From IMG/VR virus record IMGVR_UViG_3300045988_026745: a stretch of 62,363 bases of DNA; one strand, 5' to 3'. Under the pieces are notes generated by a model. It searched no databases, was not told where the DNA came from, and saw nothing but the letters and a program-made list of their open reading frames with translations. This stretch comes from a virus. The position numbers were made by a program, and so were the translations under genes. Positions 1 to 62,363 of this stretch are shown here, one piece after another. Every line of letters starts with the position of its first letter. The stretch's first letter is position 1.

Positions 1-55
1 GCAATAACATCATCATCACAATATTCAGCGACTTCAACCCATTTTTCTTGTGGTA
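1..55. repeat. Terminal overlap copy 1 (circular-assembly junction)
   Basis: Bases 1-55 'gcaataacatcatcatcacaatattcagcgacttcaacccatttttcttgtggta' recur exactly as the last 55 bases (62309..62363). Confidence 0.97.
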
Positions 56-2600
56 CTGGCTGATCCCAAGGGAGACCCAATTCATGATGCTTGATGTTCT
101 TCAACATTCGTCTAAGACTATCACTCATTTTTGACGTTGGATCATTTGCTTTGTTTGACATCTCAATCTCAAGTTTCTTAAGGGATTTCTTGTTTCCAGC
201 CGAAGCAAAATCATACACATCAGTATAAGAAAGATTATATGCTTCGCCAAAGAATGCGTTTCTATCTCCAGATATAATTCTTTGAGACAAGTTATAAAGC
301 GCCTCATTGGTATAACCCATCATACATGCATAAATAAGATGATTATCATATCTACGACAGTTGAAACCTACTAATCTAAACTTAACAAGATCCTCAATAT
401 CAGCTGGAGTAGGGTTAATCATTCGTACAACAGGAACGCCTTCGCCAGCAGGTTTCCAGTTAACTAAGAATAAGTTCGGAAATACCTCAATATCATAGAA
501 CACTAAAGGTTTGTCATCATTGTTAACCGGATCAGCAGGTTCTTCAGATTTGAATTTCATCTGAGAAACCTGTTTTAAACATTTGTCTGCCTGGTTCGTA
601 CTACTAGCAGCGAATGCTACAACAGAACCTTTTAAGTCTGATACGTCGTAATTCATCCCACTGTTATATGCGTCTTCAAGAATCTTAAATATAAATGATA
701 CCTCTGGCGCTGTTGCGCCGTGATGCTCTTTATTCAAACACTGTTTAATTGTCGTTCGTAATCCTTTTTCAGATTGAACAACATCTGTATTAATCATTTT
801 CTCCTCCTTTAATGGTAATCCCGAGCCGATAGTAGCGATTGGTAAGTCATTACATTTACTAAGTCTTCGTCTTAACGAACTCTTACCCGTGAATACCTTG
901 ATCTCAATGTCGTCGGAATATATCCTCTTAAGTTTCGTAGGATCACCTGTGTAAATATAATGAAGATGAATACCTGCTCCGCCTTTGCTTACCTCAGCAT
1001 AAGTTGGTGGCCATTTACTAGCAGCTTCGAGATTCTTTTCAAATGACTTGTTACCAGATTCATCTTTGAGATCGAAGTCGATTACTACATGCGTCTCTGG
1101 AATCTTGACATAATGAAGTTTCGATGTGTCAATGTCGGAGAGTTTAGTTGTGACTTTATCCCATGGTTTGAGTGGTGTTTCTTTTTCGCTTGCATATTGG
1201 GCGGGACAGTCTCGGCATTCCTCATCAAATATCGATGATTGCCCCTCTTTAAAATGTATGGTTTGTCTATCTGTCTTTTGTACATCCTCTTTTTCACCCC
1301 CTAATTCTTTCTCGAAAATATCAGTACGGAATCCACTGTATTTATTCTGTATCCTTGAATCTCCATCGATTCTCTCTTCATAATCCCAGAAATAGTTCTT
1401 AAGTTCTTCCTTGAATGTTCTTAGAGAAAATGGGTAAGGTACTTTAGCGTCCTCAGCATACTGTTTATACATTTCATAAGCTGCTTTAAGAGTTGTACTG
1501 TCATGTTTCTTAAACACAGAATATGAATCAATCACAAAGTTATAGAAATCATTTGATGCTCCAAGCATATTTGTAGGAACATAATCGTCATAAGCTCCTG
1601 GATCATCTAAATATACTTCCTTACAATGTTGAGCAATAGCGCCTAACTCGAAGTCTATTTTACTGACAGTTTCCTTATACTCTCGCATTGACAATTTATT
1701 TCCAGATGGTGTCACATCAATAAGACGTCTTAATAAACCTGATTTACCGTCTGTGATCTTTACAGGCTTATTCGTACCCATAAATAAGAAAGCATTGAAT
1801 CTACTAGCGTAAGTAGACTTAAACTTCTCATTTACAGTCATAAGCTCGTGAGATACTAAACTGTTAAGTCTCGTATTATCTTCAATCTTAGACAAGTCAC
1901 CATCATGCTGGATAGCTACAAGCGGATTCGTCTTAAACGCTTCCAAAGCAAAAGAGTTATTACTCGACCCTAATGCTTTTGCATCAAAAACAGAATAATA
2001 ACCCTCAAATAACTTCTGTACAACATTTAAGATTGTCGACTTACCTGTTCCTGCTGAACCATAGAATACCATGAACTTCTGAATATCTTTGGAATCTCCA
2101 GACACAATAGCTCCGATAGCCCACTCTATCTTATGTCTTTCACTGGGAGAATATAAAGTAGAGATAAGCTTATCCCACGCTGATATGTCTCCAGCTTCAA
2201 GTGGGTATGGTAATCTCTTACTAGCATACTGCTTTTTGTCAGTTTTGGTGTTTGAAAATATCAATGTCTCGTCAAGAGGATGATAGTTGTCTCTCATCTG
2301 TTTCTGACAATACTTATGCCAAGAATCAATCGAACCTGTGGAACCATCCCACATGTAAGATATCTTAAGCGTATCTTCTATAGTTTCTTTGTCCACTGCT
2401 GCTTGGATCTCCCTATCTATTAAATCTAAACAATCTTGCTCTTCGGTGGACCAAAGACCTTTGTCTTCGACCCACACAGCATAGAAATCTCCACCTCGTA
2501 TCATAAGGTCTGAAGATTTCCTTATAACAAATTTAGGATAGATTTCTGTAACGCCCTTTTTTGGTTGACGTTTAGAAACCCTTACAAAATCAAGTGGCAT
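1..2600 (-). CDS. Replicase polyprotein, N-terminal and middle parts: SF3 (D5/P4-type) helicase + AEP prim-pol-like domain + start of family-B DNA polymerase exonuclease domain; continues at 62308 across the junction
   Basis: Absent from the ORF track because it runs off base 1. The minus frame (codons on 3k..3k+2) has no stop from ATG 2600..2598 to base 1, with an aaaggagg SD about 11 nt upstream. Hand translation starts MPLDFVRVSKRQ... Helicase motifs: Walker A 'FYGSAGTGKST' (~2030-2065) and 'FMGTNKPVKITDGKSGLLRRL'. AEP-like motifs: 'VVIDFDLKD', 'GGAGIHLHYIY', 'DIEIKV' (~1085-900). Exonuclease motifs: ExoI 'FYDIEVF' (480-500), ExoII 'VGFNCRRYDNHL' (336-371), ExoIII 'YCDDDVIAT' (3-23). Confidence 0.85.
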   Translation of the reverse strand, partial: MPLDFVRVSKRQPKKGVTEIYPKFVIRKSSDLMIRGGDFYAVWVEDKGLWSTEEQDCLDLIDREIQAAVDKETIEDTLKISYMWDGSTGSIDSWHKYCQKQMRDNYHPLDETLIFSNTKTDKKQYASKRLPYPLEAGDISAWDKLISTLYSPSERHKIEWAIGAIVSGDSKDIQKFMVFYGSAGTGKSTILNVVQKLFEGYYSVFDAKALGSSNNSFALEAFKTNPLVAIQHDGDLSKIEDNTRLNSLVSHELMTVNEKFKSTYASRFNAFLFMGTNKPVKITDGKSGLLRRLIDVTPSGNKLSMREYKETVSKIDFELGAIAQHCKEVYLDDPGAYDDYVPTNMLGASNDFYNFVIDSYSVFKKHDSTTLKAAYEMYKQYAEDAKVPYPFSLRTFKEELKNYFWDYEERIDGDSRIQNKYSGFRTDIFEKELGGEKEDVQKTDRQTIHFKEGQSSIFDEECRDCPAQYASEKETPLKPWDKVTTKLSDIDTSKLHYVKIPETHVVIDFDLKDESGNKSFEKNLEAASKWPPTYAEVSKGGAGIHLHYIYTGDPTKLKRIYSDDIEIKVFTGKSSLRRRLSKCNDLPIATIGSGLPLKEEKMINTDVVQSEKGLRTTIKQCLNKEHHGATAPEVSFIFKILEDAYNSGMNYDVSDLKGSVVAFAASSTNQADKCLKQVSQMKFKSEEPADPVNNDDKPLVFYDIEVFPNLFLVNWKPAGEGVPVVRMINPTPADIEDLVKFRLVGFNCRRYDNHLIYACMMGYTNEALYNLSQRIISGDRNAFFGEAYNLSYTDVYDFASAGNKKSLKKLEIEMSNKANDPTSKMSDSLRRMLKNIKHHELGLPWDQPVPQEKWVEVAEYCDDDVI
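795..810 (-). promoter_or_regulatory. In-frame internal SD + ATG inside the replicase ORF (possible separate start for a polymerase-only product)
   Basis: The minus strand reads 'aaaggaggagaaaATGattaataca'. ATG 797..795 is in the replicase frame and lies between the AEP-like domain and ExoI. Confidence 0.4.
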
Positions 2601-2618
2601 TACATCATTTGTCCTCCT

Positions 2619-3170
2619 TTATGAAATAGAATCAAGATACCAACAGAGCTGTGTCCAAATATCAACGTCTCTAAGATCTCCGTCGAATCCGCGAATAGTG
2701 AATAGACCTCCTTTACCGTCTGGTTGATAACTTCTGTTTAATAATCTTGATACAATAATATACGCCTCATCTTTATTAAAATGCTCGTCATCCATATTAC
2801 CTAACCCAAGGCTGTTAATCATTCCCCAGAACCATTGTCCTGTTCTGTCTCCATAAGCAGCATCGTCCATAATAGTTTGCTCACATCTTATAGCTAAAGC
2901 AATCATCATTTCTAATACAGTACAAGGTCCCTCTAAGAAAAGAGCAATCTCACGATAATTATCTTTCTCACCAATATCACAAGCAAATTTCCATCTTAGA
3001 TTAACACCGTCGAGTTCTCGGTTAATATCTTGATGTATAACGCTAACGAATTTTACAGTATGCAAATACATCAAAAGTTTTCTGTATGAAATATCATCTG
3101 AAAATCTATCTTGTGAGACCTTGTCATACATCCAATCGAAGTAATAGTTTATAATGTTGTTACCATCCAT
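2619..3170 (-). CDS. Hypothetical protein (183 aa)
   Basis: ORF track. It ends 18 nt upstream of the replicase start and overlaps the upstream gene's stop in the co-directional array. Confidence 0.75.
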   Translation of the reverse strand: MDGNNIINYYFDWMYDKVSQDRFSDDISYRKLLMYLHTVKFVSVIHQDINRELDGVNLRWKFACDIGEKDNYREIALFLEGPCTVLEMMIALAIRCEQTIMDDAAYGDRTGQWFWGMINSLGLGNMDDEHFNKDEAYIIVSRLLNRSYQPDGKGGLFTIRGFDGDLRDVDIWTQLCWYLDSIS

Positions 3171-4321: not shown

Positions 4322-5251
4322 TCACATGAGATTAAGGATGTTTCCATCAACATTGAAGTCAAGTAAGATTGTTCTTTCATATCCATTTACAAAGTCTCTG
4401 TTTTTAACTTTGTTAGAATCAAATATACCGAAGTCTACATAGTTGTCACCGATAGGATTCTTTTCATCATAAATCCAACCTACAATCTGGCCTGCTTTAG
4501 TACGAGGAATACCAAGCATGTCGTATACTTCATTTAAGTATAAATATCCGTTAGCTTTTAACTTGTCGTCTGCAAATGCCTGCTGTTTGAGAAGAAAAGC
4601 TAAATTAAGTTCTGGATCTTTTGTCCACCCAGTACAACCATCATCAAAGAATTTAGCAAACTCGCTAACGTCATTAGCTACATCAATTGTTTTCTTAATA
4701 GTTTTCTCTTTTCCTGTTTTTTCATCAACAATAGTTTCTTCAACTTCCTCTTTCTTAATGTTGTAACGAAGCTCACGATCAAGATCTTTACCAAATCTTT
4801 CAACAACACGTCCACGATAATCTTTGAATGATTTATCTACTGCCGTATATGCTGCTGCGATTGCAATGTTACGTTTACGCATAATATTGTTGGATGTCAG
4901 GATAGCTGTAATAGACAGACCACCAAGCACAATAGATGGACCGTAAAGTTTGAGAAGTTTCACTGCTGTCTGGGTATAAACAATAGTCAAATCTTTCTTA
5001 CCATCTTCTTCTGTGTATTCTTCTGGAAGATTTTCTGGATGTTCCATAGCTTCGTGAATTTTATCAACCTGCTCTTTAGATTCTTCTAAAATATCATTTA
5101 ATTTAGTAGTAGCTTTACAAGCCATTACAGCACTTGTTACAGCGCCAGCAACTCCAGCTACAATTAAGATTTCAGGACTATGTTTTTTAAGCTGGAATCC
5201 TGCTTTGTTTAATCCTCTAGTTACTTTAGTTGTAATATCAAACTTCTTCAT
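4322..5251 (-). CDS. Membrane-hairpin protein, paralogue 1 of 3 (309 aa)
   Basis: Shares three elements with 6780..7547 and 7799..8572: an N-terminal 'KHSPEIL..G.AG......A.KAT.K' helix, a second hydrophobic helix and a C-terminal 'YLNE.Y..LG......G...GW' motif. Confidence 0.8.
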   Translation of the reverse strand: MKKFDITTKVTRGLNKAGFQLKKHSPEILIVAGVAGAVTSAVMACKATTKLNDILEESKEQVDKIHEAMEHPENLPEEYTEEDGKKDLTIVYTQTAVKLLKLYGPSIVLGGLSITAILTSNNIMRKRNIAIAAAYTAVDKSFKDYRGRVVERFGKDLDRELRYNIKKEEVEETIVDEKTGKEKTIKKTIDVANDVSEFAKFFDDGCTGWTKDPELNLAFLLKQQAFADDKLKANGYLYLNEVYDMLGIPRTKAGQIVGWIYDEKNPIGDNYVDFGIFDSNKVKNRDFVNGYERTILLDFNVDGNILNLM

Positions 5252-6748: not shown

Positions 6749-6780
6749 CTTCCATTAAAGCGCATGTAATTTTTGCGAAT
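6749..6780 (-). promoter_or_regulatory. Conserved promoter-like module, copy 1
   Basis: Minus strand: ATTCGCAAAAATTACATGCGCTTTAATGGAAG. Consensus of at least 11 copies: aTTCGCGAAAAwTACATGnnCTTTAATGAGAG. Confidence 0.45.
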
Positions 6781-7547
6781 TAATATACAAATTTATGATA
6801 GTCATATCTTGGTGCTATCTCATATTCAATATAAATACACGGTCTTCCGTCGTCTGTAATTTGAGATGAGAAGTCAATCTCTATCTGGCCTTCATTCATG
6901 TTCCAACCCAACTCCTCACTAAGACTTGTCGGTGATAAACCAATCTCACTGTAGAATTCTGTCAACGATACACTCATTTCATTAAGTAATCGTCGGTTTA
7001 TCGTATTTACTGCTTTTTCGATAGTGTTCATATCGGACTTAAAATATCGTCCTGATATAGAATCGCAGAAAAGACTTTCTCCTTTGTCTGTTATAATCAC
7101 TTCAGACTTAGTTACAGGATTCTTTTCCATTTTATCTTTAGCGATAGCAGATCTAATGTCTTTTGCTTTCTCTTCGCCAACGGTTTCAATAACTTTCTCC
7201 TTATACTCAGCAAGAGCTGTTTCGGATAATTTATAAGCTGTAGCGAGAGCTGCTTTTCTTCTAAGATTTACTGAGTTTGCTCCTATAAGACATCCCACTG
7301 ATGCTACTCCAAGAAGAGTTGCTGGAATATAACATTTCCATGTTACTTTTACTTTCTCTGGAACAGTAAGATCTTCTTCCTTGTCATATCGAGCATCCTC
7401 CATAAGTTTCAGAGCCTTTGGTGTTGCTTTTACAGCAAGTACAGTAGTGGTAATCATACCGGCAATACCTATTCCTGTAAGAATTTCAGGACTATGTTTT
7501 GATGCAGTATTTCTAGCTGCTTTGAAAAATACACTTAATTTACTCAT
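6780..7547 (-). CDS. Membrane-hairpin protein, paralogue 2 of 3 (255 aa)
   Basis: 'SKHSPEILTGIGIAGMITTTVLAVKATPKALKLMEDA' closely matches paralogue 3 ('...VVATTITAVKATPKALRLIEEA'). C-terminal motif: 'LTEFYSEIGL...LGW'. Confidence 0.8.
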   Translation of the reverse strand: MSKLSVFFKAARNTASKHSPEILTGIGIAGMITTTVLAVKATPKALKLMEDARYDKEEDLTVPEKVKVTWKCYIPATLLGVASVGCLIGANSVNLRRKAALATAYKLSETALAEYKEKVIETVGEEKAKDIRSAIAKDKMEKNPVTKSEVIITDKGESLFCDSISGRYFKSDMNTIEKAVNTINRRLLNEMSVSLTEFYSEIGLSPTSLSEELGWNMNEGQIEIDFSSQITDDGRPCIYIEYEIAPRYDYHKFVY

Positions 7548-7798: not shown

Positions 7799-8572
7799 TC
7801 AATAACGTTCTAAGAAATCATAAGTAGGCTCAAATGGCATTTCAATAATATAAACATCTTTACCTTCCTCAGATTCCAATTTTCTATGATTGAAGTCAAT
7901 CCAGTACATGCCATCATCGTTAGGAGCCCAACCTAGAACAGATCCATAGTCGGTCTCTTCGATACCAAGAAACTCATAGAATTCATTCAAGTAAGAATAT
8001 CCTCTTAAAATATAATTCCTATTCAAGTGATATTCGGCTGTTAAGACTTGTTCAATAGTAGATTCAAAATATCTACCTGAGTGTTCGTCATAGAATACTT
8101 GTGGTTCGCCATTATTCTCCTCTAACGCTAGATCACAATTAGTTCCTAAATATGATCCTCGTACACCAACGTCCTCAGCCTTCTCAATAGCAATTGCTTC
8201 TCGGACCTCTTGATCTACTTCTTCGCCATAAAGTTCCTTTAGCTTTCTTCGATAATCTTTGTATGATTGATCTACAAGAGCGTATGCACTCATTAGAGCT
8301 GCTTGCTGGCGTTGGTTTAGGATATGCGCACCGAATACACAAACGAGCGTCGATATACCAAGTCCAACCGTAGGGATATAAGTCGGTCCTGCTGTTTTTA
8401 CTTTTTCCCATTTCGTTAATCGTTCTCCTTTCTTTTGTTCGGCTTCTTCAATTAAACGAAGAGCTTTTGGTGTTGCTTTTACTGCTGTGATTGTTGTAGC
8501 TACTACCCCAACGCCTCCTAAACAAGTTAAAATAGTTGAAGCATTGTGTTTGATGAATAGTCGCGAATTCAT
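7799..8572 (-). CDS. Membrane-hairpin protein, paralogue 3 of 3 (257 aa)
   Basis: See 4322..5251. C-terminal motif: 'YLNEFYEFLGIEETDYGSVLGW'. A structured leader (8603..8729) precedes it. Confidence 0.8.
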   Translation of the reverse strand: MNSRLFIKHNASTILTCLGGVGVVATTITAVKATPKALRLIEEAEQKKGERLTKWEKVKTAGPTYIPTVGLGISTLVCVFGAHILNQRQQAALMSAYALVDQSYKDYRRKLKELYGEEVDQEVREAIAIEKAEDVGVRGSYLGTNCDLALEENNGEPQVFYDEHSGRYFESTIEQVLTAEYHLNRNYILRGYSYLNEFYEFLGIEETDYGSVLGWAPNDDGMYWIDFNHRKLESEEGKDVYIIEMPFEPTYDFLERY

Positions 8573-12934: not shown

Positions 12935-14581
12935 ATGTATAAAGAATGTCCAAAGTTTTACAATTATGAAGTAAAAGAGTATGGAAGAAAGTCGCGTACG
13001 GACGACCCCTTACTCTCAACCGACGAAATACTCGAGAAGCACAGTAAGATTGTAGAGGAATATGCTGTTAAATATTTAGGCGGCCCAATCCCAGATGATA
13101 ACAAATATATGGAAGTAGCAAGTGGTGAATCACTTAAAGACCGTCCTGAGATAACTCGTTTGCTCAAAGATATAGAAGACCCTGCTGTCAAAGCTATAAT
13201 AGTAGTCGAGGTACAGCGTTTAAGTCGTGGCGACCTCGAGGATGCTGGTAGGCTTATAAGGTTGCTCAGATACACGAATACTTATGTAATCACTCCTATG
13301 AAAATATATGACTTACGTGATGAATATGATAGAGATGCATTCGAACGTGAGCTTAAACGAGGTAATGAATATCTTGAGTATTTTAAGAAGATTCAAGCTC
13401 GTGGTAGATTAGCAAGTGTTAAAGACGGTAACTATATTGGCTCAACGGCTCCTTATGGATTTGACCGTATAGAGAAATTTGAAGCTGATGGCAAGAAATC
13501 ATACCACACTCTAATCGAACGTAAGGACCAAGCTGATGTAGTCCGTATGATCTTTAACTGGTATTGCGAAGAAGATATAGGCGTTACAGCAATTTGTAGA
13601 AGACTTGAAGATATAGGAGCTAAGACTAAGACTGGCCAGAGTACCTGGAAACCAAGTATAATTTTCAGTATCTTAGAAAATCATCACTATATTGGCTGCA
13701 CACGTTGGAATTGGCGGAAAACTGTGAAAATAATTGAAGACCAAGAAATAAAGAAGTTACGTCCGAAGGCAAAAGTAGACGAGTTCTTATTATTCGAAGG
13801 AAAGCATGATGGTATTATCCCAGAAGAGCAATTTAACAAGGCTCGTGAAATTAGAGGTAAACGTCATAGGACTCGTAGGGACCTGACTCTTAAAAACCCA
13901 TTCAGTGGAATTATGTTCTGTAAGCGATGCGGTCATAAGATTGGTTATAACACTTACACTAGACATGGTATTGAATATGCTCCACCTAAACTCGTATGTA
14001 ATAACCAAGTACACTGTAAATCAGGTTCTGTAAAATATAGTGAAGTGTTTGAATACGTCCGTAGAGTCTTAAAAGACTGTATAAGCGACTTTGAAGTACG
14101 CATAGAGAATAACCAAGACGACTCGTTAAAACTCCATACAGACCTAATGGCCAGGCTCACAAAGCAACTTGCTGATCTCGAGAAGAAAGAATTGGAACAA
14201 TGGGATGCTCAGTACGACCCTGATCCAGCTAAGAGACTTCCTCAACATATCTTTGCCAAACTCAATGAGAAAGTGTTAAAAGAAAAAGAGGAAGTAAATA
14301 AAGCGTTAGCCAAAGCTAAAGACTCTGCTCCAAAACATATCAATTATCGAGATGAGTTAATTAAGACTAAAGATGCTCTGAGAATATTGGAAGATGTCGA
14401 ATTAGACGCTAAAACAAAGAATCAATATCTTAAAACAGTGATTTCTAAAATGGTGTACGAACGAGATCCAATTGTACAAATCACAAAAGACAATGCTGAG
14501 AAATATAACATGCAATCGTCCAAGGGTACAAAATACTATAACCCTCCCTATAAGATAACGATTGAGCTTAAGTGTGATTAA
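12935..14581 (+). CDS. int: Large serine recombinase (integrase), 548 aa
   Basis: N-terminal resolvase-type domain ('YGRKSRTDD', 'IIVVEVQRLSRGD'), a recombinase domain and a Cys-rich zinc-ribbon region ('FCKRCGHKIG...CNNQVHC') followed by a coiled-coil tail. Confidence 0.9.
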   Translation: MYKECPKFYNYEVKEYGRKSRTDDPLLSTDEILEKHSKIVEEYAVKYLGGPIPDDNKYMEVASGESLKDRPEITRLLKDIEDPAVKAIIVVEVQRLSRGDLEDAGRLIRLLRYTNTYVITPMKIYDLRDEYDRDAFERELKRGNEYLEYFKKIQARGRLASVKDGNYIGSTAPYGFDRIEKFEADGKKSYHTLIERKDQADVVRMIFNWYCEEDIGVTAICRRLEDIGAKTKTGQSTWKPSIIFSILENHHYIGCTRWNWRKTVKIIEDQEIKKLRPKAKVDEFLLFEGKHDGIIPEEQFNKAREIRGKRHRTRRDLTLKNPFSGIMFCKRCGHKIGYNTYTRHGIEYAPPKLVCNNQVHCKSGSVKYSEVFEYVRRVLKDCISDFEVRIENNQDDSLKLHTDLMARLTKQLADLEKKELEQWDAQYDPDPAKRLPQHIFAKLNEKVLKEKEEVNKALAKAKDSAPKHINYRDELIKTKDALRILEDVELDAKTKNQYLKTVISKMVYERDPIVQITKDNAEKYNMQSSKGTKYYNPPYKITIELKCD

Positions 14582-45731: not shown

Positions 45732-48629
45732 TTACGACTTAAGATACTTTGAAACAGTTGATGTAGAAACACCAAGCTTGTCAGCTATCTCAGCAATTGT
45801 ATAAGAAGCTGACATTGCTTTGATTCTATTAATCTTTGCTTGATTGATAGCTACTGATTGTTTAGGCATTGCTCTTTGTCTAAGTGAGTCTGGGTCGCAC
45901 TGGTTAAGTATGCGCTTAAGCTTAGACTCACTGATAGCACCTGCCTGAATAGCTTCCCATTCTTTATCGCTAATGACTATATTTCTATCTTTTCTTGAAA
46001 TAGATCCAACTTCTTCACGAGCTTTACTTAATGCTCTTTGACTATCTTTCCTTACATCTTTAGCTTTATATGTAACGCCTTCTTCTTCGGCCTTCTTCTT
46101 CTTAGCATTGATAGTGGCAGCCGCCATTCTGTTAGCTGTTCTTTCTCTAACTGTATTAAGTTCAGCTTTACGAAGTTTATCGTCAAGACTCTTTACTTCT
46201 GTATCATACTTTCTTTTAGCATCAGCGTTATATGCAACCTTACCTGCTTTAGTCATCTCAACCCTAGCTTTATTAGCTAATGATTTCATGCTGTTAGCAT
46301 AGTCAGCATAAACTAATTCCATTAGATGTCTGTATTCAGAAACTAATGTCATAGCATCATCTGTTTCAGCCATCTTTGTACTCTTCTGCTTACGAGTACG
46401 TACCTCAGTGACAGTCTCGCCTGTACGCTTATTGGTCTTGGTTATGGTATAGTCCGCATCGTCTGCCCTCCTATATAGAAGCGCTCCCTCAGGACGGGAT
46501 GGATCATAGTCTGGTCTACCCTTAATGTTTATGTGCGGCGTTCCCTGTCTCTTATCCACATCATACTCGCCCTTAGCACGAGAGATAAGTGTTGATGCTC
46601 CACCATATCTCATGCGACCATTCTTATCTTCATGAGCCTGGTATTCTTTTCTAAGAGCTGCTATGTTATTGTCTATCTCACTCTGCTTGTAGTCTAGCTT
46701 GTGCTTCTCAGCATCGATAACGACCATGGAGTGACGAACAGCTCTTGCCATCTTCTCAGGCGGCGCTCCTGCCAATGTCATGTCTGTAATAAGATTGGAG
46801 ATCTTACCCATCTCAGTATCAGTCTTCTTCATTACTTTGAATTCAGCGCCGTTACGATAGTAATGTTCTTTGCCATCTGAATCAACCTTCATGTCATGAT
46901 ACTGATAGGATTTAGAATCAAATCCAACTAATCCCTCAAGTGGATCTGTGGAAGTAATCTTAACCTTTCCACCTTTATCATGGGTTGGAATACACATAAC
47001 CGTATCGCCATCAAAGTCTGCCCCAGACAATCGCTCAGCAACCTTACTGTTAATACCTATAGCATCGATAGAAGTCTTACCAATCATCTTGATAGCTTCT
47101 GGGTTTTTATTATTAACAGTACAGATTGGTATTTCAAATGTACCACCATGAGGATATCGAATAAGAGCAAGCTTAGTTCCATCCGCATAGTTCGGAGCAT
47201 ATACTTCTTTTTCACTCATAGAAGTGACTGGCAGTATAACGTGATACTTCTGTCTAGGTAAAGCAGCAGCTTTTAGATCAACAGCGGCAGAATCGCAACT
47301 CTGAGCAAACTTATTTAAGTAATACTTCTTGATAGTTGGATTAGTAAGAGCCATGATTTCATCAAACTCAGACTGCTTGTCTGCTTTAGCAATGCCAAGC
47401 TGTTTCTTAGCCATAGATAAAGACTGTTTTGATAAGAACTGAGAAGGTAATGCATCTTTCCATTCATTCCATTCGCCTTCTTCTCTTGTCTTATTGATTA
47501 GACCAAGCTTCTTATTACCATTCTTATCCTCATACCAATACTGTCCACCCTTTTCTTTAACCAAAGCACCAAATGGATTGTCAGGATCATCTTTAATCTT
47601 CTTCAAGACATCCATTTTAGCAACATCTTTGGATTTGTTAGTGTTGAATATAACGTCAACACCTGGCGGAAAGTCTTTAGGGTCACCATAAACAGCCATA
47701 CCTTTCAAATATCGCTTACCGTCAACCATAATTCTGACCTGAGAATATCGTGATTCGCCAAGAGACAAGTCAGCAACACCAGGACGAAGTTCCATAACAC
47801 CATCCTTGTCGATACCGCCGTCTTCTTTATAACGGATTTTCAGTCGACTTGAGTCCATGCTTTCTGGATAATGGAATTTCTTTTCGAATGTTTTACCATC
47901 GTCCCTTGAAATATAATCATTGAGTGTCTGAATTCTATCAAGATCATATATTTCATTATGTTTTGTGCCTGGTTTACATAATACTCGCTGAGTTGTCATC
48001 TGCCCTTTGTTGGTCACCTGCGCAAAGCGACCACCATAAACTTCATATCCTCCTTCTGCTTGGAGAATAAAGAGGGCCTGATCTAATTTTTCTTTAGATA
48101 TATTAAGTTCTCTCTCAACACCAGCACCAACGTCAACCATACCTTTTTCATCAACATGTTTCTTGAGGAAATCTGCTGTTTCTCGAGCCTGCTTCATACG
48201 GAATTCTCTGTTAGGATCAAGTAAACTACGAACGGTTGATTCATTGATTCCCATTTTACGGCCAATCTCACTATTATTTAAACCATCGCTCTTCAAAGAT
48301 TGAGCTCTAGCAACATCATACGCTCGTCGTTCATCTTTAGCTATTCCATATACAGTTCTGAAGTCTGTAGAAGAATATCCGAGAGATTTAGCGATAGCAT
48401 TGTCGCCAGTATAGGTTTTACCAGTCTCTGGATCAGTATATGTAAAACCATTTTTTCGCATTTGCTCAACTCGACCATAGAAGTCTCTACCTGATTGATA
48501 TGGATCTTCACCTGATCCCCAAGGATATCTTCCCGATCTACGAGGCATTCCATAGTGTTCAAGATATTCTTCATCGGTCATTGAAGCAGAGTCAATATAT
48601 GATTTAATCTCTTCTGCTACAGCATTCAC
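45732..48629 (-). CDS. Candidate single-subunit two-barrel RNA polymerase (YonO/RdRP-like) with terminal HTH segments, 965 aa
   Basis: 'LIRYPHGGTFEIPICTV' (~47143-47170) is followed by 'LSGADFDGDTVMCIP' (DFDGD = 47004..47018). HTH-like segments: 'NNSEIGRKMGINESTVRSLL' (N-terminal) and 'YTIAEIADKLGVSTSTVSKYL' (C-terminal). Confidence 0.5.
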   Translation of the reverse strand: MNAVAEEIKSYIDSASMTDEEYLEHYGMPRRSGRYPWGSGEDPYQSGRDFYGRVEQMRKNGFTYTDPETGKTYTGDNAIAKSLGYSSTDFRTVYGIAKDERRAYDVARAQSLKSDGLNNSEIGRKMGINESTVRSLLDPNREFRMKQARETADFLKKHVDEKGMVDVGAGVERELNISKEKLDQALFILQAEGGYEVYGGRFAQVTNKGQMTTQRVLCKPGTKHNEIYDLDRIQTLNDYISRDDGKTFEKKFHYPESMDSSRLKIRYKEDGGIDKDGVMELRPGVADLSLGESRYSQVRIMVDGKRYLKGMAVYGDPKDFPPGVDVIFNTNKSKDVAKMDVLKKIKDDPDNPFGALVKEKGGQYWYEDKNGNKKLGLINKTREEGEWNEWKDALPSQFLSKQSLSMAKKQLGIAKADKQSEFDEIMALTNPTIKKYYLNKFAQSCDSAAVDLKAAALPRQKYHVILPVTSMSEKEVYAPNYADGTKLALIRYPHGGTFEIPICTVNNKNPEAIKMIGKTSIDAIGINSKVAERLSGADFDGDTVMCIPTHDKGGKVKITSTDPLEGLVGFDSKSYQYHDMKVDSDGKEHYYRNGAEFKVMKKTDTEMGKISNLITDMTLAGAPPEKMARAVRHSMVVIDAEKHKLDYKQSEIDNNIAALRKEYQAHEDKNGRMRYGGASTLISRAKGEYDVDKRQGTPHINIKGRPDYDPSRPEGALLYRRADDADYTITKTNKRTGETVTEVRTRKQKSTKMAETDDAMTLVSEYRHLMELVYADYANSMKSLANKARVEMTKAGKVAYNADAKRKYDTEVKSLDDKLRKAELNTVRERTANRMAAATINAKKKKAEEEGVTYKAKDVRKDSQRALSKAREEVGSISRKDRNIVISDKEWEAIQAGAISESKLKRILNQCDPDSLRQRAMPKQSVAINQAKINRIKAMSASYTIAEIADKLGVSTSTVSKYLKS

Positions 48630-56865: not shown

Positions 56866-57216
56866 TTATTCCTCCTTTTTAACAAGTTTGTCTATACAAC
56901 TTTTAACATAGTCTATAGCAGCGCAATATCCGTAGGTCCATGCGTCTTTTAAAGCTTCGAACTGTTCGTCGGTAAGCCCTGTTAAACTGTGATTAGCCGC
57001 AATATCATTTAAGCGATTATCAAGATCGCTACAAGATTCCGGCAAAGGACAATCGTTGCTACTCTCTAAAACATTTACAGCTTTATGAAGAGCTATAATG
57101 TTCATAAGTGCGCCTATGCTCTTTCCATTACCTCTTGGTTCTTTGTAGCTTTCTAACATTTTTCTTATTAATGTAGCATCTTCTTTGTTTGACAATGTGC
57201 TATTTATTTGTCCCAT
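56866..57216 (-). CDS. Hypothetical protein (116 aa)
   Basis: ORF track. Confidence 0.7.
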   Translation of the reverse strand: MGQINSTLSNKEDATLIRKMLESYKEPRGNGKSIGALMNIIALHKAVNVLESSNDCPLPESCSDLDNRLNDIAANHSLTGLTDEQFEALKDAWTYGYCAAIDYVKSCIDKLVKKEE

Positions 57217-58460
57217 TTCGTAAACTTCCTTTCATTAAATTTCTTTTTTTGTGCAAGCGCTTTGGATATGGCTAGATCAATACCCGATCTACTTTTTAGA
57301 TGATAGTAATATAAATCTCTGTAAGGAGTGTTCATCCTATCTATTCGTCCTGACGCTTGCTGCATAACTTTATAACTGTAATTTTGTGAGAAGAATATAA
57401 TAGTGTCTGTCCGAATACAATTCCAGCCTTCGCAGCCTGCTGTATACTGAACTAAATATATCCATCTTTCACAATTAGGTACCTCTTGGTGAGCGTGTCC
57501 AGACCACTCTGCAATCTCATATCCTACATATTCATCATCGCAAGTTAGATGGAGCAACATATCCCGCTCATAGTCGAAATTGTAGAATATAATAGCCCTA
57601 GGCGTCTTCTCAAGGATCTCCATTAAAGCCACAATTCTTGAATCGTCCTCATTTACAATTCTTCGCAATACATAACAAAGACCAGCTGCCTGCTGAATAG
57701 GCTCATTTTTAAACGGGTCCCATCTAGTCCTTATAGCTTCCTTATATTTGTGTACATCGTACTTAACATAAATATCCTCATGGTGAGGTATAGTGCCTCT
57801 ATGAAAATCCATATCTACTAAGATTCGATTTCTGAGTCTAATCAATCTTCCAGTATTCAAATATCTATCTACCTGAGGCCACTTAGTAAATCTTGAGTAA
57901 ACAATATGCTCTCTCTGGAATTCAGTTTTATTCTTATAGAACCCGTTGGCAATAAACACTGGAATATAATCACTCCAACAATCTCCGGGAGTGGCTGAGA
58001 GAATAATCCAATTATTATTTTTAGCAATCTTATAGAACGCCTTAACCCATGCTCCTGATCCACACACTCTATCTTCGTCAAATATAAAGAAAGCTCCTGA
58101 CACATCAACGTATTTCTTGATGTTATTCCAGGAGTCAACTACAATCTTATTTCCATAGAACATGTTTCGGTCTGGATCAGTTGATAATAAGAAGTTAGCA
58201 AGCTCACCCTCCCATTCGAGAGAGTCTCGTTTCATAGCCGTAGTGATAATATAAAGGTCCTGTGGTCTTTGCTTCATAGGAATATGATTTGGAAGCATTG
58301 CTCCGCCATTCTCTTTGAAGTAGTAATATAAACCGGTCCTACTTTTACCGGACCCCACACCACCGTTGAGAATACACCCATTCCTCATTTTGTTTACCGC
58401 ATCCATCTGATAATCTCTTAGAAAAGGTTCTACTTTACTCACCATCTCTAGCAACACCAC
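57204..58460 (-). CDS. Superfamily-2 (SNF2/DEAD-like) helicase (about 413-418 aa)
   Basis: 'LRDYQMDAVNKM', Walker A 'NGGVGSGKSRTG', 'FFIFDEDR' (DExx) and C-terminal 'QASGRIDR'. The start is either 58460 (GTG) or 58445 (ATG). Confidence 0.8.
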   Translation of the reverse strand: MVLLEMVSKVEPFLRDYQMDAVNKMRNGCILNGGVGSGKSRTGLYYYFKENGGAMLPNHIPMKQRPQDLYIITTAMKRDSLEWEGELANFLLSTDPDRNMFYGNKIVVDSWNNIKKYVDVSGAFFIFDEDRVCGSGAWVKAFYKIAKNNNWIILSATPGDCWSDYIPVFIANGFYKNKTEFQREHIVYSRFTKWPQVDRYLNTGRLIRLRNRILVDMDFHRGTIPHHEDIYVKYDVHKYKEAIRTRWDPFKNEPIQQAAGLCYVLRRIVNEDDSRIVALMEILEKTPRAIIFYNFDYERDMLLHLTCDDEYVGYEIAEWSGHAHQEVPNCERWIYLVQYTAGCEGWNCIRTDTIIFFSQNYSYKVMQQASGRIDRMNTPYRDLYYYHLKSRSGIDLAISKALAQKKKFNERKFTKWDK

Positions 58461-60695: not shown

Positions 60696-60727
60696 CTCTC
60701 ATTAAAGGAGATGTAAATATCACGAAT
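60696..60727 (-). promoter_or_regulatory. Conserved promoter-like module, copy 11 (overlaps the replicase stop codon)
   Basis: Minus strand: ATTCGTGATATTTACATCTCCTTTAATGAGAG. Confidence 0.45.
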
Positions 60728-62363
60728 TATAAGAACGGTAACTCATCTTCGTCCGTATCCGGGATTGTCATAAAATCTGGTGTAGGCTCTGGCGGGATAT
60801 AAGGATCGTCTGAAACGAACCATTCGAAGTCTCCATATTTACTAATTACTTCGACAGCGTCGTCAGCAAGCTTATCATAGAATCTATAGTCAATATAATC
60901 TTTCTTGCCTATGTTTTTAACAACCTCGGACTCAAGCCAGCGATATCCAGTAGAGCCTGATGCTGCGTAGTTTTTACCTTCGTTAATACGGTAAAGCACA
61001 CCGCCACCATGGCCTGACTGAATAGGAGTGAACTGGCCTACTCTTCCTACAAAAATATAATTGTGTCCTGGCTCAATCAACTCTTTAAGTCTCATTGATT
61101 CAGGTTCGAATGTTGTGTCTGAAAGCTGACCTTTCTTATATTTACTCTCAAGTTTATCAAGTTCTTTCTCATACTCAGTCACATCTGGAAGATCTTCATT
61201 CATATCCAAATATAAAGATCCTTTAGCTACTGAGAAAGTTTCGCATAAGTCTTCAAACACAATGTCTTCATGACTGAATAAATTCTTGAATACATAAGGT
61301 ACAGCAAACTGTTTGCCTGTAGCCGTCCAAGAATCTTCAATATGCTTCTTATTATCTCCAGGAGCATATCCATACATAGCTTCGCATTCGTCAGGATCTT
61401 TATACTTAGCAATATAAACTGCGTCATTTACTAAGCACATACGATCGTATGTAGCTTCATGTTCGAATGTGTAGCCATATCTCTTACCGAATTCCATAAC
61501 AAATTCGATAATCTCCGGAGTAGCATCTGGAATCTTAATCGAGTCTGTCTTAATATGAGCAACAGTGAAGCCGCGTTCCTGTACTGCGTGTTTAAGATCC
61601 ACCATGAATAAAGCTCCACGTTTAGCAACAATATTGTCTTTGTTTCTCATATCACGGAATGGATTCTCAAAGCCAGCCGCTGTTAAACCGTATACTGAGT
61701 TAATAGCTGTCTTAAGCGCATTAGCAAGATCTCCAGATTTCATCTCACCGTTCTTAACCCTCTGAATATGTTTCGTAAGCTTACCATCGAGCATATGGTT
61801 AACTTCTTCCCAAGCTTCGTGTTTAATGTTTACACGACCCTCGACAATGTCTCGATAAGCTTTAGTGTATCTTATACCAAATAAACATTCAGCTATTGTG
61901 CTGTGTGGATGCATGGAAGCAACATCAAGTAAGGCTACATTACCGTACATACCTGGCTCAGCGTAAACATAGCCGCCCTCTCCGACTTCCTCATCACGAT
62001 ATGTAGATTTACCATACTCGTATTTATACCCAGGAAAATATGGTAAGAGCGACCCAGCTTCACCGTGAGTCTTTTCCATCATCTCAGGACAGGCTTCTGC
62101 TAAGAACTGATAAGTGTCTTCATCCAAATCCATTACAGGCTCTGCTAAATTACGATAATGGAATTCTTTTTGAGGTTTTTTATTACCACCAAATATGATT
62201 TTCTGAGTCAATGTGTTAGTCGTACTGTTAACTGACATCTCAGCTAAGTCTGCCAGAATCTCTCGTGCGGTCCAGTCAGCAGACAAATAATTAAACGCTG
62301 CTTCGGTTGCAATAACATCATCATCACAATATTCAGCGACTTCAACCCATTTTTCTTGTGGTA
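60727..62363 (-). CDS. Replicase polyprotein, C-terminal part: family-B DNA polymerase domain (joins 1..2600 across the junction)
   Basis: The track's start (62286, TTG) is internal; the frame stays open to the window end. Motifs: 'LLDVASMHPHS' (motif A, DxxSLYPS-like), 'LKTAINSVYG' (motif B, Kx3NSxYG), 'HIKTDSIKI' (motif C, DTDS-like), 'IAKYK' (KxY). Confidence 0.85.
   Translation of the reverse strand, partial: PQEKWVEVAEYCDDDVIATEAAFNYLSADWTAREILADLAEMSVNSTTNTLTQKIIFGGNKKPQKEFHYRNLAEPVMDLDEDTYQFLAEACPEMMEKTHGEAGSLLPYFPGYKYEYGKSTYRDEEVGEGGYVYAEPGMYGNVALLDVASMHPHSTIAECLFGIRYTKAYRDIVEGRVNIKHEAWEEVNHMLDGKLTKHIQRVKNGEMKSGDLANALKTAINSVYGLTAAGFENPFRDMRNKDNIVAKRGALFMVDLKHAVQERGFTVAHIKTDSIKIPDATPEIIEFVMEFGKRYGYTFEHEATYDRMCLVNDAVYIAKYKDPDECEAMYGYAPGDNKKHIEDSWTATGKQFAVPYVFKNLFSHEDIVFEDLCETFSVAKGSLYLDMNEDLPDVTEYEKELDKLESKYKKGQLSDTTFEPESMRLKELIEPGHNYIFVGRVGQFTPIQSGHGGGVLYRINEGKNYAASGSTGYRWLESEVVKNIGKKDYIDYRFYDKLADDAVEVISKYGDFEWFVSDDPYIPPEPTPDFMTIPDTDEDELPFL
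62309..62363. repeat. Terminal overlap copy 2 (circular-assembly junction)
   Basis: Exact copy of bases 1-55. Confidence 0.97.

Follow-up and report, generated by a model that had tools for sequence, protein, structure and literature searches.

The window analysed here, a stretch of 62,363 nucleotides, belongs to a temperate, siphovirus-like phage infecting gut Firmicutes, and the phage's replicase gene is spread over its two ends. Bases 1-55 of the window are an exact copy of its last 55 bases (bases 62309-62363 duplicate bases 1-55), so the molecule closes into a circle of 62,308 bp. The first 2.6 kb has the appearance of an ORF desert because the ORF listing omits frames left unfinished at a sequence end. 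Translation of the re-circularised molecule revealed that, as an earlier note based on the letters of the window had proposed, one minus-strand frame is open from the ATG at 2600 to base 1 and onwards from 62308 to a stop ending at 60727. The frame measures 4,182 nt, in which 1,393 codons precede the stop, and encodes a full-length product of 158.7 kDa. The 5' part of the gene (1..2600, with the ATG at 2600..2598) contains codons 1-866 in full and codon 867 up to its second base, and the 3' part (60727..62308, with the stop codon at 60729..60727) lies across the circular junction. All the peptide strings quoted in the earlier note were located in the protein, beginning at residues 181 (GSAGTGKST), 274 (MGTNKP), 288 (GLLRRL), 505 (VVIDFDLKD), 540 (GGAGIHLHYIY), 564 (DIEIKV), 701 (FYDIEVF), 993 (motif A), 1066 (motif B) and 1118 (HIKTDS).

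Since the frame crosses the window end, and the 55-bp length of the overlap resembles an assembler k-mer, it might be argued that circularisation of the contig created the long ORF artificially, through a misjoin at the overlap concealing two genes or a stop codon at the junction. This explanation is practically untenable. An identical 1,393-aa protein (P0001) was found in public collections, and in an independently assembled 61,345-bp ENA contig the replicase gene lies in the interior (L001, 4866-9047) with a translation exactly equal to that of the query, a result that rules out an assembly artefact and substantiates the claim that the junction contains no stop. A 5.3-kb Logan contig also encodes the identical 1,393-aa protein. 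Furthermore, the same unbroken gene is present in hundreds of relatives, isolated sequenced phages included, and the junction falls within the conserved exonuclease domain, which is aligned there without a gap.

The replicase belongs to a family already known, HelPrimPolB, and its fusion of helicase, primase and polymerase is not new. The HelPrimPolB group was described by Kazlauskas, Krupovic and Venclovas (NAR 2016, PMC4889955; NAR 2020, PMC7544198), with gp55 of Lactococcus phage 1706 as its exemplar (PMC4889955, PMC7544198). Comparison of bases 1-2700 by megablast with 50,697 phage records yielded nothing; the phage thus lacks close sequenced relatives in terms of DNA, and searches had to be made with the protein. 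In BLASTP, gp55 of phage 1706 is 38% identical to the replicase over 1380 aa (E = 0), and PHROG 4210 matches it end to end (1932 bits; residues 3-1372 of the query against 1-1292 of 1304). Full-length homologues occur in 252 phage records, where they are annotated as 'DNA primase/polymerase' or 'helicase/polymerase'. Identity is 56% to the 'helicase/polymerase' of Faecalibacterium phage FP_oengus and 45-49% to the actinophage relatives, which are the 'DNA primase/polymerase' of Arthrobacter, Gordonia and Streptomyces phages. The HelPrimPolB relatives share with the window the genome neighbourhood of the gene and, at another location, a YonO-like RNA polymerase. Within its clade of gut phages the replicase is unexceptional, and architecturally it is no different from HelPrimPolB; clade-specific insertions are found, among other places, at aa ~815-835, ~922-950 and ~1240-1280, of which MT835485 has only the one at ~1240-1280. 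Its single polypeptide runs without a stop through helicase (aa 121-440), AEP (455-595) and PolB (699-1393), and the three activities do lie in one reading frame, with each of the three domain calls supported. The position of the helicase ahead of the primase, which the earlier note had singled out as atypical, is likewise real but precedented, having already been described for HelPrimPolB (PMC4889955).

The first 120 residues (2241..2600; this and all following features lie on the minus strand) form an N-terminal domain that is conserved in the family and has no match in Pfam, PHROG sub-families or PDB. It is followed by a helicase of the SF3/D5 type (1281..2240, aa ~121-440) containing the Walker A sequence GSAGTGKST (2034-2060). 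SF3 helicases are hexameric rings that drive unwinding in the 3'-5' direction by means of ATP. Pfam DUF5906 matches this domain with an E value of 1e-12, above the curated cutoff, and is the only detection by Pfam in the whole protein, and a profile search retrieves the SaPI-type primase-helicase 7ola at 2e-6 together with the NrS-1 helicase domain 6k9c. In the family alignment, G186-K187-[ST] of Walker A, D233/D235 of Walker B, the sensor N277 and the pair R291-R292 are all invariant. These matches and residues bear out the previous call of an SF3/D5-P4-type helicase. Profile databases supported the domain reading in part, with DUF5906 on the helicase and PHROG 4210 over the entire length but neither DNA_pol_B nor Prim-Pol in Pfam, a silence that reflects insensitivity of the models and not missing domains.

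Next to the helicase lies the catalytic core of an AEP of the prim-pol type (816..1238, aa ~455-595), the most conserved stretch of the replicase in the family alignment. Sequence models miss this block, which is too divergent for them: a Pfam search yields no AEP family match in the replicase at E up to 1, the family profile of the region run against PDB sequences finds nothing meaningful and no AEP, and the only primase match among PHROGs is a weak one (phrog_3022, E 0.003). Membership of the AEPs therefore rests on fold and motifs. An AlphaFold model of the domain (pLDDT 91.2) was compared with the PDB by Foldseek, and the ten best matches, with E between 4e-6 and 2e-3 and a probability of at least 0.99, come exclusively from the prim-pols pRN1 ORF904 and NrS-1, the next ones being noise (E of at least 0.6). 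The TM-scores are modest (0.3-0.4) because the query also includes the helix bundle, and sequence identity to pRN1/NrS-1 is 13-16%. In BFVD, 42 of the fold matches are prim-pol proteins. The motifs DxD (motif I, DFD, D508-F-D510, 1071-1079), GxHxH (motif II, GIHLH, G543-x-H545-L-H547, 960-974) and ExK (motif III, I-E-I-K at aa 565-568, E566-x-K568) are each invariant in 240/240 relatives, the residues being assigned to motifs by sequence pattern rather than by residue-level structural superposition. Motif III has Glu in place of the commoner Asp. The assignment to the prim-pol clade is thus supported by a predicted fold whose only significant matches are the pRN1 and NrS-1 prim-pols as well as by the motifs, in keeping with the prim-pol-like block that had been read from the sequence.

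The remainder of the protein is a family-B polymerase, identified by profile, motifs and fold, which starts in 1..506 (aa 699-866) and continues, together with a C-terminal domain, in 60730..62308 (aa 867-1393). Its sequence profile matches Pol II (9e-9), archaeal PolB and Pol alpha, and Pfam DNA_pol_B gives no match in the replicase. The structure model (pLDDT 89.2) retrieves 213 PDB matches at E <=1e-3, the top 50 of which are all PolBs. The proofreading motifs Exo I (D-I-E, D703/E705, 486-494), Exo II (N747..Y751-D752, aa 745-754) and Exo III (Y860..D864, aa 859-865), the last of which spans the contig junction (8..1 plus 62308..62296), have residues that are invariant in 240/240 relatives, except for N747 at 238/240. 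As to the polymerase motifs, motif A (DVASMHPHS, 61900-61926) reads S-M-H-P, with His replacing the steric-gate Tyr and the catalytic Asp (D995) retained, motif B (KTAINSVYG, 61687-61713) is canonical (K1066..N1070-S-V-Y-G), and motif C (KTDS, 61540-61551, within H-I-K-T-D-S) keeps its second Asp, D1122, and has Lys for the first in 240/240 relatives. The family-B polymerase with ExoI-III and motifs A, B and C put forward in the earlier note is supported, with A and C departing from their canonical forms, and the reading K-T-D-S instead of D-T-D-S is real and invariant in the family; this divergence is already in the literature, where motif C and KxY of HelPrimPolB are described as divergent relative to other PolBs (PMC7544198). 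Judging from its sequence, the polymerase is a proofreading PolB of the divergent, Pol-epsilon-N-like HelPrimPolB type. The motif-C Lys and the motif-A His depart from canonical PolB and count against the proposed enzymatic reading of the gene. Stand-alone relatives of the polymerase module also exist, as exemplified by the Efquatrovirus PolB (21% identity).

Inside the replicase gene there is an in-frame site, 'aaaggaggagaaaATG', whose ATG at 797..795 corresponds to Met602. The putative internal initiation region (795..809) is made up of the SD AAGGAGG (809..803), a 5-nt A-rich spacer and this ATG. According to the structure model, Met602 sits in a flexible linker of low pLDDT that separates the AEP core from a four-helix bundle (561..770, aa 611-680), itself flanked by low-confidence linkers. 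The bundle may serve the primase, as an accessory domain of the helix-bundle/PriCT-like kind, or may form the N-terminal domain of the polymerase. The location of the site exactly at the primase/polymerase boundary, as originally suggested, is only approximately right, in that the bundle after Met602 may be the primase's. A primase-type bundle in this position would have no obvious reason to travel with the polymerase, a consideration that goes against a nested isoform.

The internal SD and ATG are present as quoted in the earlier note and are conserved across the family. Internal starts were scanned over 1393 in-frame columns in 78 non-redundant genes (<80% identity, GC 29-58%), and column 602 ranks first, with a start-capable codon in 75/78 genes, a strict SD in 68/78 and both in 65/78; the second-ranked internal column combines a start-capable codon and a strict SD in 12/77 only. 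The codons used at column 602 are ATG (51 genes), GTG (19) and TTG (5); of the three genes among the 78 that lack such a codon, two carry GTG or ATG at the next codon. In the larger set, a start-capable codon at the site is kept in 159/162 family genes. When the residue is Val or Leu, the codon is GTG or TTG in 24/25 cases against 5.6 expected from the codon usage of each gene, a bias for which a binomial estimate that treats the genes as independent gives about 1e-14, kinship making such naive probabilities overstate significance. The GGAG core is retained in two codon phases, encoding K-E or K-G-E, at a spacing of 5-9 nt from the start codon across the family, and the upstream Gly codon of low-GC genes is GGA in 31/32 cases (12.1 expected). 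In the Lactococcus clade, L165 and L167 the start-capable codon is shifted by one codon with the SD retained, and phage 1706 displays AGGAGG followed by TTG at the site. Predicted mRNA accessibility at the site is in the 99th percentile in the gene of the window and has a family median in the 84th percentile, both SD-likeness and predicted accessibility being inflated by the A/G-richness that Lys/Glu/Gly codons confer on the site. A consensus promoter scan for an internal promoter revealed no enrichment (9 sites versus 12.1 expected). The internal SD and start codon appear to be a property of the whole family, which seems to have gone undescribed: literature searches found neither a description of internal initiation in HelPrimPolB nor protein-level or ribosome-profiling evidence of the short product for any family member.

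Split or stand-alone forms of the gene were sought with a junction-straddling query against 1.8 billion representatives, which yielded no clean case of natural splitting. The sequences of three short clusters stop <=5 residues from the site but resemble fragments or A-run frameshifts, and a ~957-aa form from the same search begins with adaptor-derived sequence. In the records with two features under the match (Makai, contig89, Inked and others), the apparent split resolves into one replicase CDS with small overlapping or antisense calls. The longest ORF of contig L068 (785 aa), considered as a natural polymerase-only gene, is unrelated and resembles a tail protein, the contig being chimeric; the replicase ORF of L068 has 768 aa and breaks off within the exonuclease domain.

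The comparative data on the internal site argue that a nested polymerase isoform of ~90 kDa is probably made alongside the fusion. The separate 792-aa polymerase that had been postulated thereby gains strong comparative support, from the joint retention of SD and start as well as from the start-capable synonyms, but is unproven. To the explanation as a whole, namely a HelPrimPolB three-enzyme replicase with a nested 792-aa product, we assign a probability of about 0.68. Its extension to every HelPrimPolB gene, each of which would be a two-product gene giving a ~159-kDa fusion and a ~90-kDa untethered helix-bundle plus PolB, is slightly less secure and still favoured on balance. It might be proposed instead that the gene has a single product, and that the SD-like string and the Met/Val/Leu codon derive from a conserved linker peptide (Lys-Glu/Gly-Glu-Lys-hydrophobic), or that the string constitutes an internal anti-SD pause site, where ribosomes are slowed at a domain boundary in aid of co-translational folding. 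Indeed, the site codes for the conserved motif LP[LF]K[EG]E, SD-like strings come easily from A/G-rich Lys/Glu codons, the site is exactly in the interdomain linker, and in literature searches the short protein has never been reported. However, peptide conservation fails to explain why 24/25 Val/Leu synonyms are start-capable when 5.6 are expected, and it leaves unaccounted for the maintenance of GGAG in two codon phases that specify different residues, the choice of GGA for Gly in 31/32 low-GC genes and the one-codon shift of the start with the SD kept in the Lactococcus clade, L165 and L167; pausing, for its part, does not need a start codon at an SD-appropriate spacing of 5-9 nt. A single product is thus unlikely.

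Far less likely still is that the internal SD and start represent a neutral relic, the old RBS of a separate polymerase gene that was fused to a helicase-primase gene. In favour of a relic, the site is found at a module boundary, and the polymerase module has stand-alone relatives such as the Efquatrovirus PolB. But protein identity in the family goes down to 36-38% and gene GC ranges over 29-58%, so that synonymous sites are saturated and a neutral site should have decayed, and this is at odds with a start-capable codon kept in 159/162 genes and a strict SD in 68/78. Moreover, the switching between ATG, GTG and TTG, always start-capable, indicates ongoing purifying selection.

The gene probably operates as follows. 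The N-terminal domain, SF3 helicase, AEP primase, four-helix bundle and proofreading PolB succeed one another in this order; the helicase part would assemble into a ring, as in SF3 helicases, and unwind the fork, the tethered AEP would make primers and the tethered PolB would extend them. One gene, aided by the adjacent SSB, would in this manner amount to a minimal replisome. If the nested polymerase is made, the SD and start codon in the linker would direct independent initiation to yield a 792-aa, 90-kDa 'helix-bundle + PolB' polypeptide free of the helicase ring, in a nesting comparable to that of gp4A and gp4B of T7 gene 4. More speculatively, this short form could supply a pool of free polymerase for lagging-strand or gap-filling synthesis. 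Leading-strand synthesis would fall to the ring-tethered polymerase, trailing the 3'-5' SF3 helicase, and the free form would take AEP-made primers on the lagging strand, with the helix bundle perhaps handing off the primer as PriL-CTD does for Pol alpha. Such a division of labour between tethered and free polymerase forms at the fork is a doubtful proposal.

HelPrimPolB proteins are abundant in isolated actinophages, Firmicutes phages and gut metagenomes, and the window adds a member, not a kind. They probably offer the simplest way of obtaining a whole replisome from a single polypeptide, and the 2016 paper called the fusion the 'ultimate testament' to the coupling of helicase, primase and polymerase (PMC4889955). 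The comparative evidence suggests that the gene is incompletely annotated everywhere, a nested polymerase product being seemingly selected family-wide. The existence of this product would alter the understanding of the stoichiometry of the 'one-gene replisome', and the two-product gene, in conjunction with an SSB, would be the most compact self-contained cellular-type replisome known. The invariant motif-C Lys and the steric-gate His are natural targets for enzymology of metal binding and sugar selectivity.

The closest known systems are the HelPrimPolB proteins themselves, such as gp55 of phage 1706, with which the replicase shares the order of SF3 helicase, AEP and PolB, end-to-end homology and a divergent motif C. 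As regards the internal site, a precedent is gene 4 of phage T7, which gives rise to two nested products, gp4A (63 kDa) and gp4B (56 kDa), from an internal in-frame SD and ATG. Both cases involve a replication fusion gene (a primase-helicase in T7) with an in-frame internal RBS and products sharing their C-terminus. The T7 short form, however, keeps the helicase and co-assembles into the hexamer, whereas that of the replicase would lose the helicase ring and the primase core to become a free polymerase; production of the former has been demonstrated, whereas that of the latter is one that we infer. The only PDB entries whose fold significantly matches that of the AEP block, pRN1 ORF904 and NrS-1 gp28, resemble the replicase in having an AEP core followed by a helical bundle, and in its association with an SF3/D5-type helicase within one polypeptide. 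In these proteins the AEP is N-terminal to the helicase, an order that is reversed in the replicase, and they act as their own polymerase, while the replicase has a dedicated proofreading PolB fused downstream. An AEP located C-terminal to a helicase is likewise found in the dns protein of phage N4 (PMC4889955), which differs in possessing an SF6/DUF3987 helicase and in being devoid of a polymerase. Finally, the other known fusion that unites helicase, primase and polymerase in one protein, Pas55 of Actinoplanes phage phiAsp2 (PMC4889955), differs from the replicase in that it combines a DnaG primase with a family-A polymerase.

The window begins and ends with the same 55 bases, an overlap that closes the contig into a 62,308-bp circle, and across this junction a single minus-strand frame runs free of stops from the ATG at 2600 to base 1 and resumes at 62308 up to a stop codon that ends at 60727. 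This gives a replicase ORF of 1,393 codons (4,182 nt including the stop). The look of an ORF desert in this region, remarked on in the earlier note, is only a listing effect, because mechanical ORF lists drop those ORFs that run off the end of a sequence. The peptide strings quoted in that note are all found in the replicase at the places assigned to them, and the ATG of aaaggaggagaaaATG, at 797..795, corresponds to Met602. The same 1,393-aa protein is present in public collections (P0001, an identical protein), and its gene lies in the interior of an independently assembled 61,345-bp contig (L001, 4866-9047), where the translation matches the query exactly. Since the identical protein sits intact inside this separately assembled contig, the junction is not artefactual, and an assembly error as the source of the long ORF can be dismissed. 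A candidate variant of the replicase on another contig (L068, IMGVR_UViG_3300029316_000315) was rejected, as this contig is chimeric and the ORF breaks inside Exo II to continue into a tail-protein-like ORF.

Both the union of three activities in one frame and the position of the helicase before the primase had been recognized correctly from the sequence, and both were already published. Exactly the same helicase-primase-polymerase fusion was described by Kazlauskas, Krupovic and Venclovas (2016), and N4 dns is another case of an archaeo-eukaryotic primase (AEP) C-terminal to a helicase (PMC4889955). A 2020 survey of family-B polymerases (PolBs) by the same authors named the group HelPrimPolB and put it, as a divergent member, within the Pol-epsilon-N-like clade (PMC7544198), and a preprint reports a wider phage supercluster sharing the HelPrimPolB replicase and a YonO-like RNA polymerase (10.1101/842583). 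The window replicase is a new member of this known and common family. It is spanned end to end by PHROG 4210 ('DNA polymerase', 1,304 positions) with 1,932 bits, and shares 38% identity with phage 1706 gp55 over 1,380 residues. By tblastn it matches 278 phage records, 252 of them at full length, in phages of Arthrobacter, Gordonia, Streptomyces, Curtobacterium, Lactococcus and Faecalibacterium, the genes being annotated as 'DNA primase/polymerase' or 'helicase/polymerase'. Two large protein searches yielded at least 8,000 candidates each, all of 1,242-1,412 aa among the matches listed, and an exhaustive search of 50%-identity representatives gave 459 clusters, 229 of them at E 1e-30 or better. 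Relatives that start near or shortly before the AEP were also seen (the protein matches P0314, of 951 aa, and P0301 and P0338, of ~960 aa, and BFVD A0A6G5YN77, of 959 aa), forming a size class of ~950-1,070 aa that may represent 'PrimPolB' forms devoid of the helicase. In P0314, motif C reads S-T-D-S and motif A contains E-H, and at least one further match of this size, P0255, is a fragment with the adaptor-derived N-terminus MGSEMCIRDS.

At the genomic level, an SSB gene lies just downstream of the replicase, and the same module contains a second, separate helicase gene of 418 aa (57204-58460, minus strand; PHROG 62 'DNA helicase'), as is also annotated near the replicase in FP_oengus and phage 1706. 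A 965-aa RNA polymerase gene (45732-48629, minus strand) matches PHROG 4291 'RNA-dependent RNA polymerase' with 1,210 bits and has HTH-like matches at both ends; from its sequence, the product is assigned as a YonO/crAss-type single-subunit RNA polymerase, a signature of the supercluster. Among the few plus-strand genes is a 548-aa integrase (12935-14581; PHROG 95), and relatives of the replicase occur on 250-305-kb contigs, one of them from a Blautia glucerasea genome; therefore, the phage probably has a temperate lifestyle and a host of Lachnospiraceae type. Three paralogous minus-strand genes (4322-5251, 6780-7547 and 7799-8572) of an unknown family, PHROG 2152 / Pfam DUF6353, lie a short way upstream of the replicase.

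Regarding the domains, all the catalytic signatures of helicase, AEP and PolB are strongly conserved in the one ORF, whose N-terminal 120 residues fall outside these assignments. The SF3 helicase (aa ~121-440) is upheld by Pfam, PHROG and PDB profile matches as well as by invariant motifs: Pfam DUF5906 (D5-type P-loop core) scores above its curated cutoff, the region matches several PHROG 'primase' families in their C-terminal (helicase) halves, and a profile built from ten diverse family members finds both the 7ola primase-helicase, at 2e-6, and the phage NrS-1 primase, in its helicase domain. Among 240 relatives there is no variation in Walker A, Walker B, the sensor Asn or an Arg-Arg pair. 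Sequence models proved insensitive for the AEP block (aa ~455-595), which gave no match in Pfam, none in the PDB with the family sequence profile and only a weak primase match in PHROG, and its structure was predicted because of this failure. The model of aa 441-690 (66-sequence alignment; mean pLDDT 91.2) finds ten significant PDB entries with Foldseek (E 4e-6 to 2e-3, probability at least 0.99) followed by noise, exclusively the prim-pol domain of pRN1 ORF904 and the phage NrS-1 primase-polymerase, and matches dozens of prim-pol proteins among predicted viral structures. The predicted fold and the DxD, GxHxH and ExK signatures, invariant in 240/240 relatives, bear out the AEP call. This is the best-conserved stretch of the replicase, with 28 of 105 positions invariant and 52-77% identity even to Lactococcus phages, which argues for an active enzyme.

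The family-B polymerase (aa ~699-1393) gave no match in the Pfam search and is supported by PHROG, PDB profile, fold and motifs. PHROG 1252 'DNA polymerase' matches it at 7e-43, and the family profile matches E. coli Pol II (9e-9), archaeal PolBs and Pol alpha with motifs A, B and C aligned. The predicted structure of aa 602-1393 (pLDDT 89.2) has 213 significant PDB matches, the best 50 of which are all family-B polymerases. All 240 relatives retain Exo I-III and the motif A-C catalytic residues, apart from two that differ at Exo II N747 (238/240). [quoted passage not shown] Motif A (61900-61926, minus strand; aa 995-1003) reads D-V-A-S-M-H-P-H-S, where a His found in 240/240 family members replaces the Tyr of the canonical PolB 'SLYPS' and, in the family profile, falls opposite the Tyr of E. 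coli Pol II; the related stand-alone PolB of Efquatrovirus, in contrast, retains SLYP. In PolBs this Tyr is the steric gate against ribonucleotides, and its replacement by His may affect sugar selectivity. Clade-specific insertions occur at aa ~815-835 and ~922-950 (exonuclease/palm region) and ~1240-1280 (before the C-terminal domain), all missing from actinophage proteins; that at ~1240-1280 is common to the gut-virome relative MT835485, and for that at ~815-835 only Lactococcus phage P118 has an equivalent. The AEP is separated from the exonuclease domain by a four-helix bundle (561-770, minus strand; aa 611-680), which has low-pLDDT linkers on either side and contains a segment, 'GTKPS-DFI', that is strongly conserved. 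The bundle and the AEP core align jointly to viral prim-pols bearing PriCT-1/2 or 'NrS-1 HBD' domains, and the bundle may belong functionally either to the primase or to the polymerase.

Met602 is located in the low-confidence linker after the AEP core (which ends at ~aa 591) and before this bundle. The internal Shine-Dalgarno (SD) plus ATG, flagged earlier for the window gene alone, turns out to be conserved across the whole family. Of 240 relatives, 238 carry Met or Val as residue 602, a protein-level count of little weight alone. In ten homologues (36-60% identity), the column-602 codon after AAGGAG is ATG in three, GTG in four and TTG in one, and the two Lactococcus phages among them have the SD with TTG or ATG one codon downstream. 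The DNA of 162 full-length genes was reduced to 78 at <80% protein identity (gene GC 29-58%), and all 1,393 in-frame columns were scanned for codons able to start translation that follow a strict SD 5-mer at a distance of 3-12 nt from its end. Column 602 ranked top, with a start-capable codon in 75/78 genes, an SD in 68/78 and both in 65/78, as against 24-30 for the annotated start, split over two alignment columns, and 12/77 and 7 for the next internal columns; an earlier scan on 43 genes gave 37 versus 7. ATG, GTG or TTG occupies the column in 159/162 genes. The family exemplar, 1706 gp55, has AGGAGG, 11 nt and TTG, and the window gene AAGGAGG, 5 nt and ATG. The main start of the latter, ATG 2600, is preceded by AGGAGG at a distance of 12 nt (2598-2625, minus strand); judged by sequence, the internal site seems no weaker than this main start. 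An out-of-frame mini-ORF (ATG-ATG-TAA) lies between the main SD and ATG 2600, its stop overlapping the start (TAATG), and may serve to couple translation or to keep the main start deliberately weak next to a near-ideal internal site. Predicted mRNA accessibility (-15..+10) ranks the internal site at the 99th percentile among the in-frame positions of the window gene; across the family the median is the 84th percentile, with 62% of genes in the top quartile, values partly confounded by A-richness. A scan for an internal promoter found no signal.

Conservation of the peptide, or a ribosome pause at an anti-SD site with no initiation, would account for the location of the site, but leaves over the restriction of synonymous codons: 24/25 Val/Leu codons at column 602 are GTG or TTG (5.6 expected from each gene's own codon usage), and GGA encodes the Gly of K-G-E in 31/32 low-GC genes versus 12.1 expected. 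Nor does it cover the GGAG found in two codon phases with different peptides (AAG GAG for K-E, AAA GGA GAA for K-G-E), with spacers of 5-9 nt, or the one-codon shifts that retain SD and start codon, and we consider it unlikely. A neutral relic of an ancestral gene fusion is implausible at the divergence of the family and much less probable still. The 50%-identity representatives yielded no naturally split gene with a clean break at the site; three short clusters ending there look like fragments or frameshifts, and one ~957-aa form has adaptor-derived residues at its start. Taken together, the evidence on the internal site bears the mark of the RNA being selected for translation initiation, a pattern that peptide selection alone would not give. 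With a probability of about 0.65-0.7, ribosomes also start at Met602 to produce a 792-aa, 90.0-kDa protein without the ring-forming and primase-core parts. No description of internal initiation in HelPrimPolB was found in the limited literature searched, and the family-wide conserved start, which is readily testable, appears to be undescribed.

By analogy with SF3 helicases, the helicase module would form a ring oligomer that unwinds the fork, while the tethered AEP would prime and the PolB would extend and proofread, as known prim-pols and PolBs suggest. The helix bundle might, speculatively, take part in primer hand-off, and a free short form could, equally speculatively, supply lagging-strand or gap-filling synthesis. 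The closest precedent for such a nested product is T7 gene 4, which encodes nested 63- and 56-kDa products. Unlike the short form of T7 gene 4, however, that of HelPrimPolB would not join a ring as a subunit and would instead be a free polymerase.
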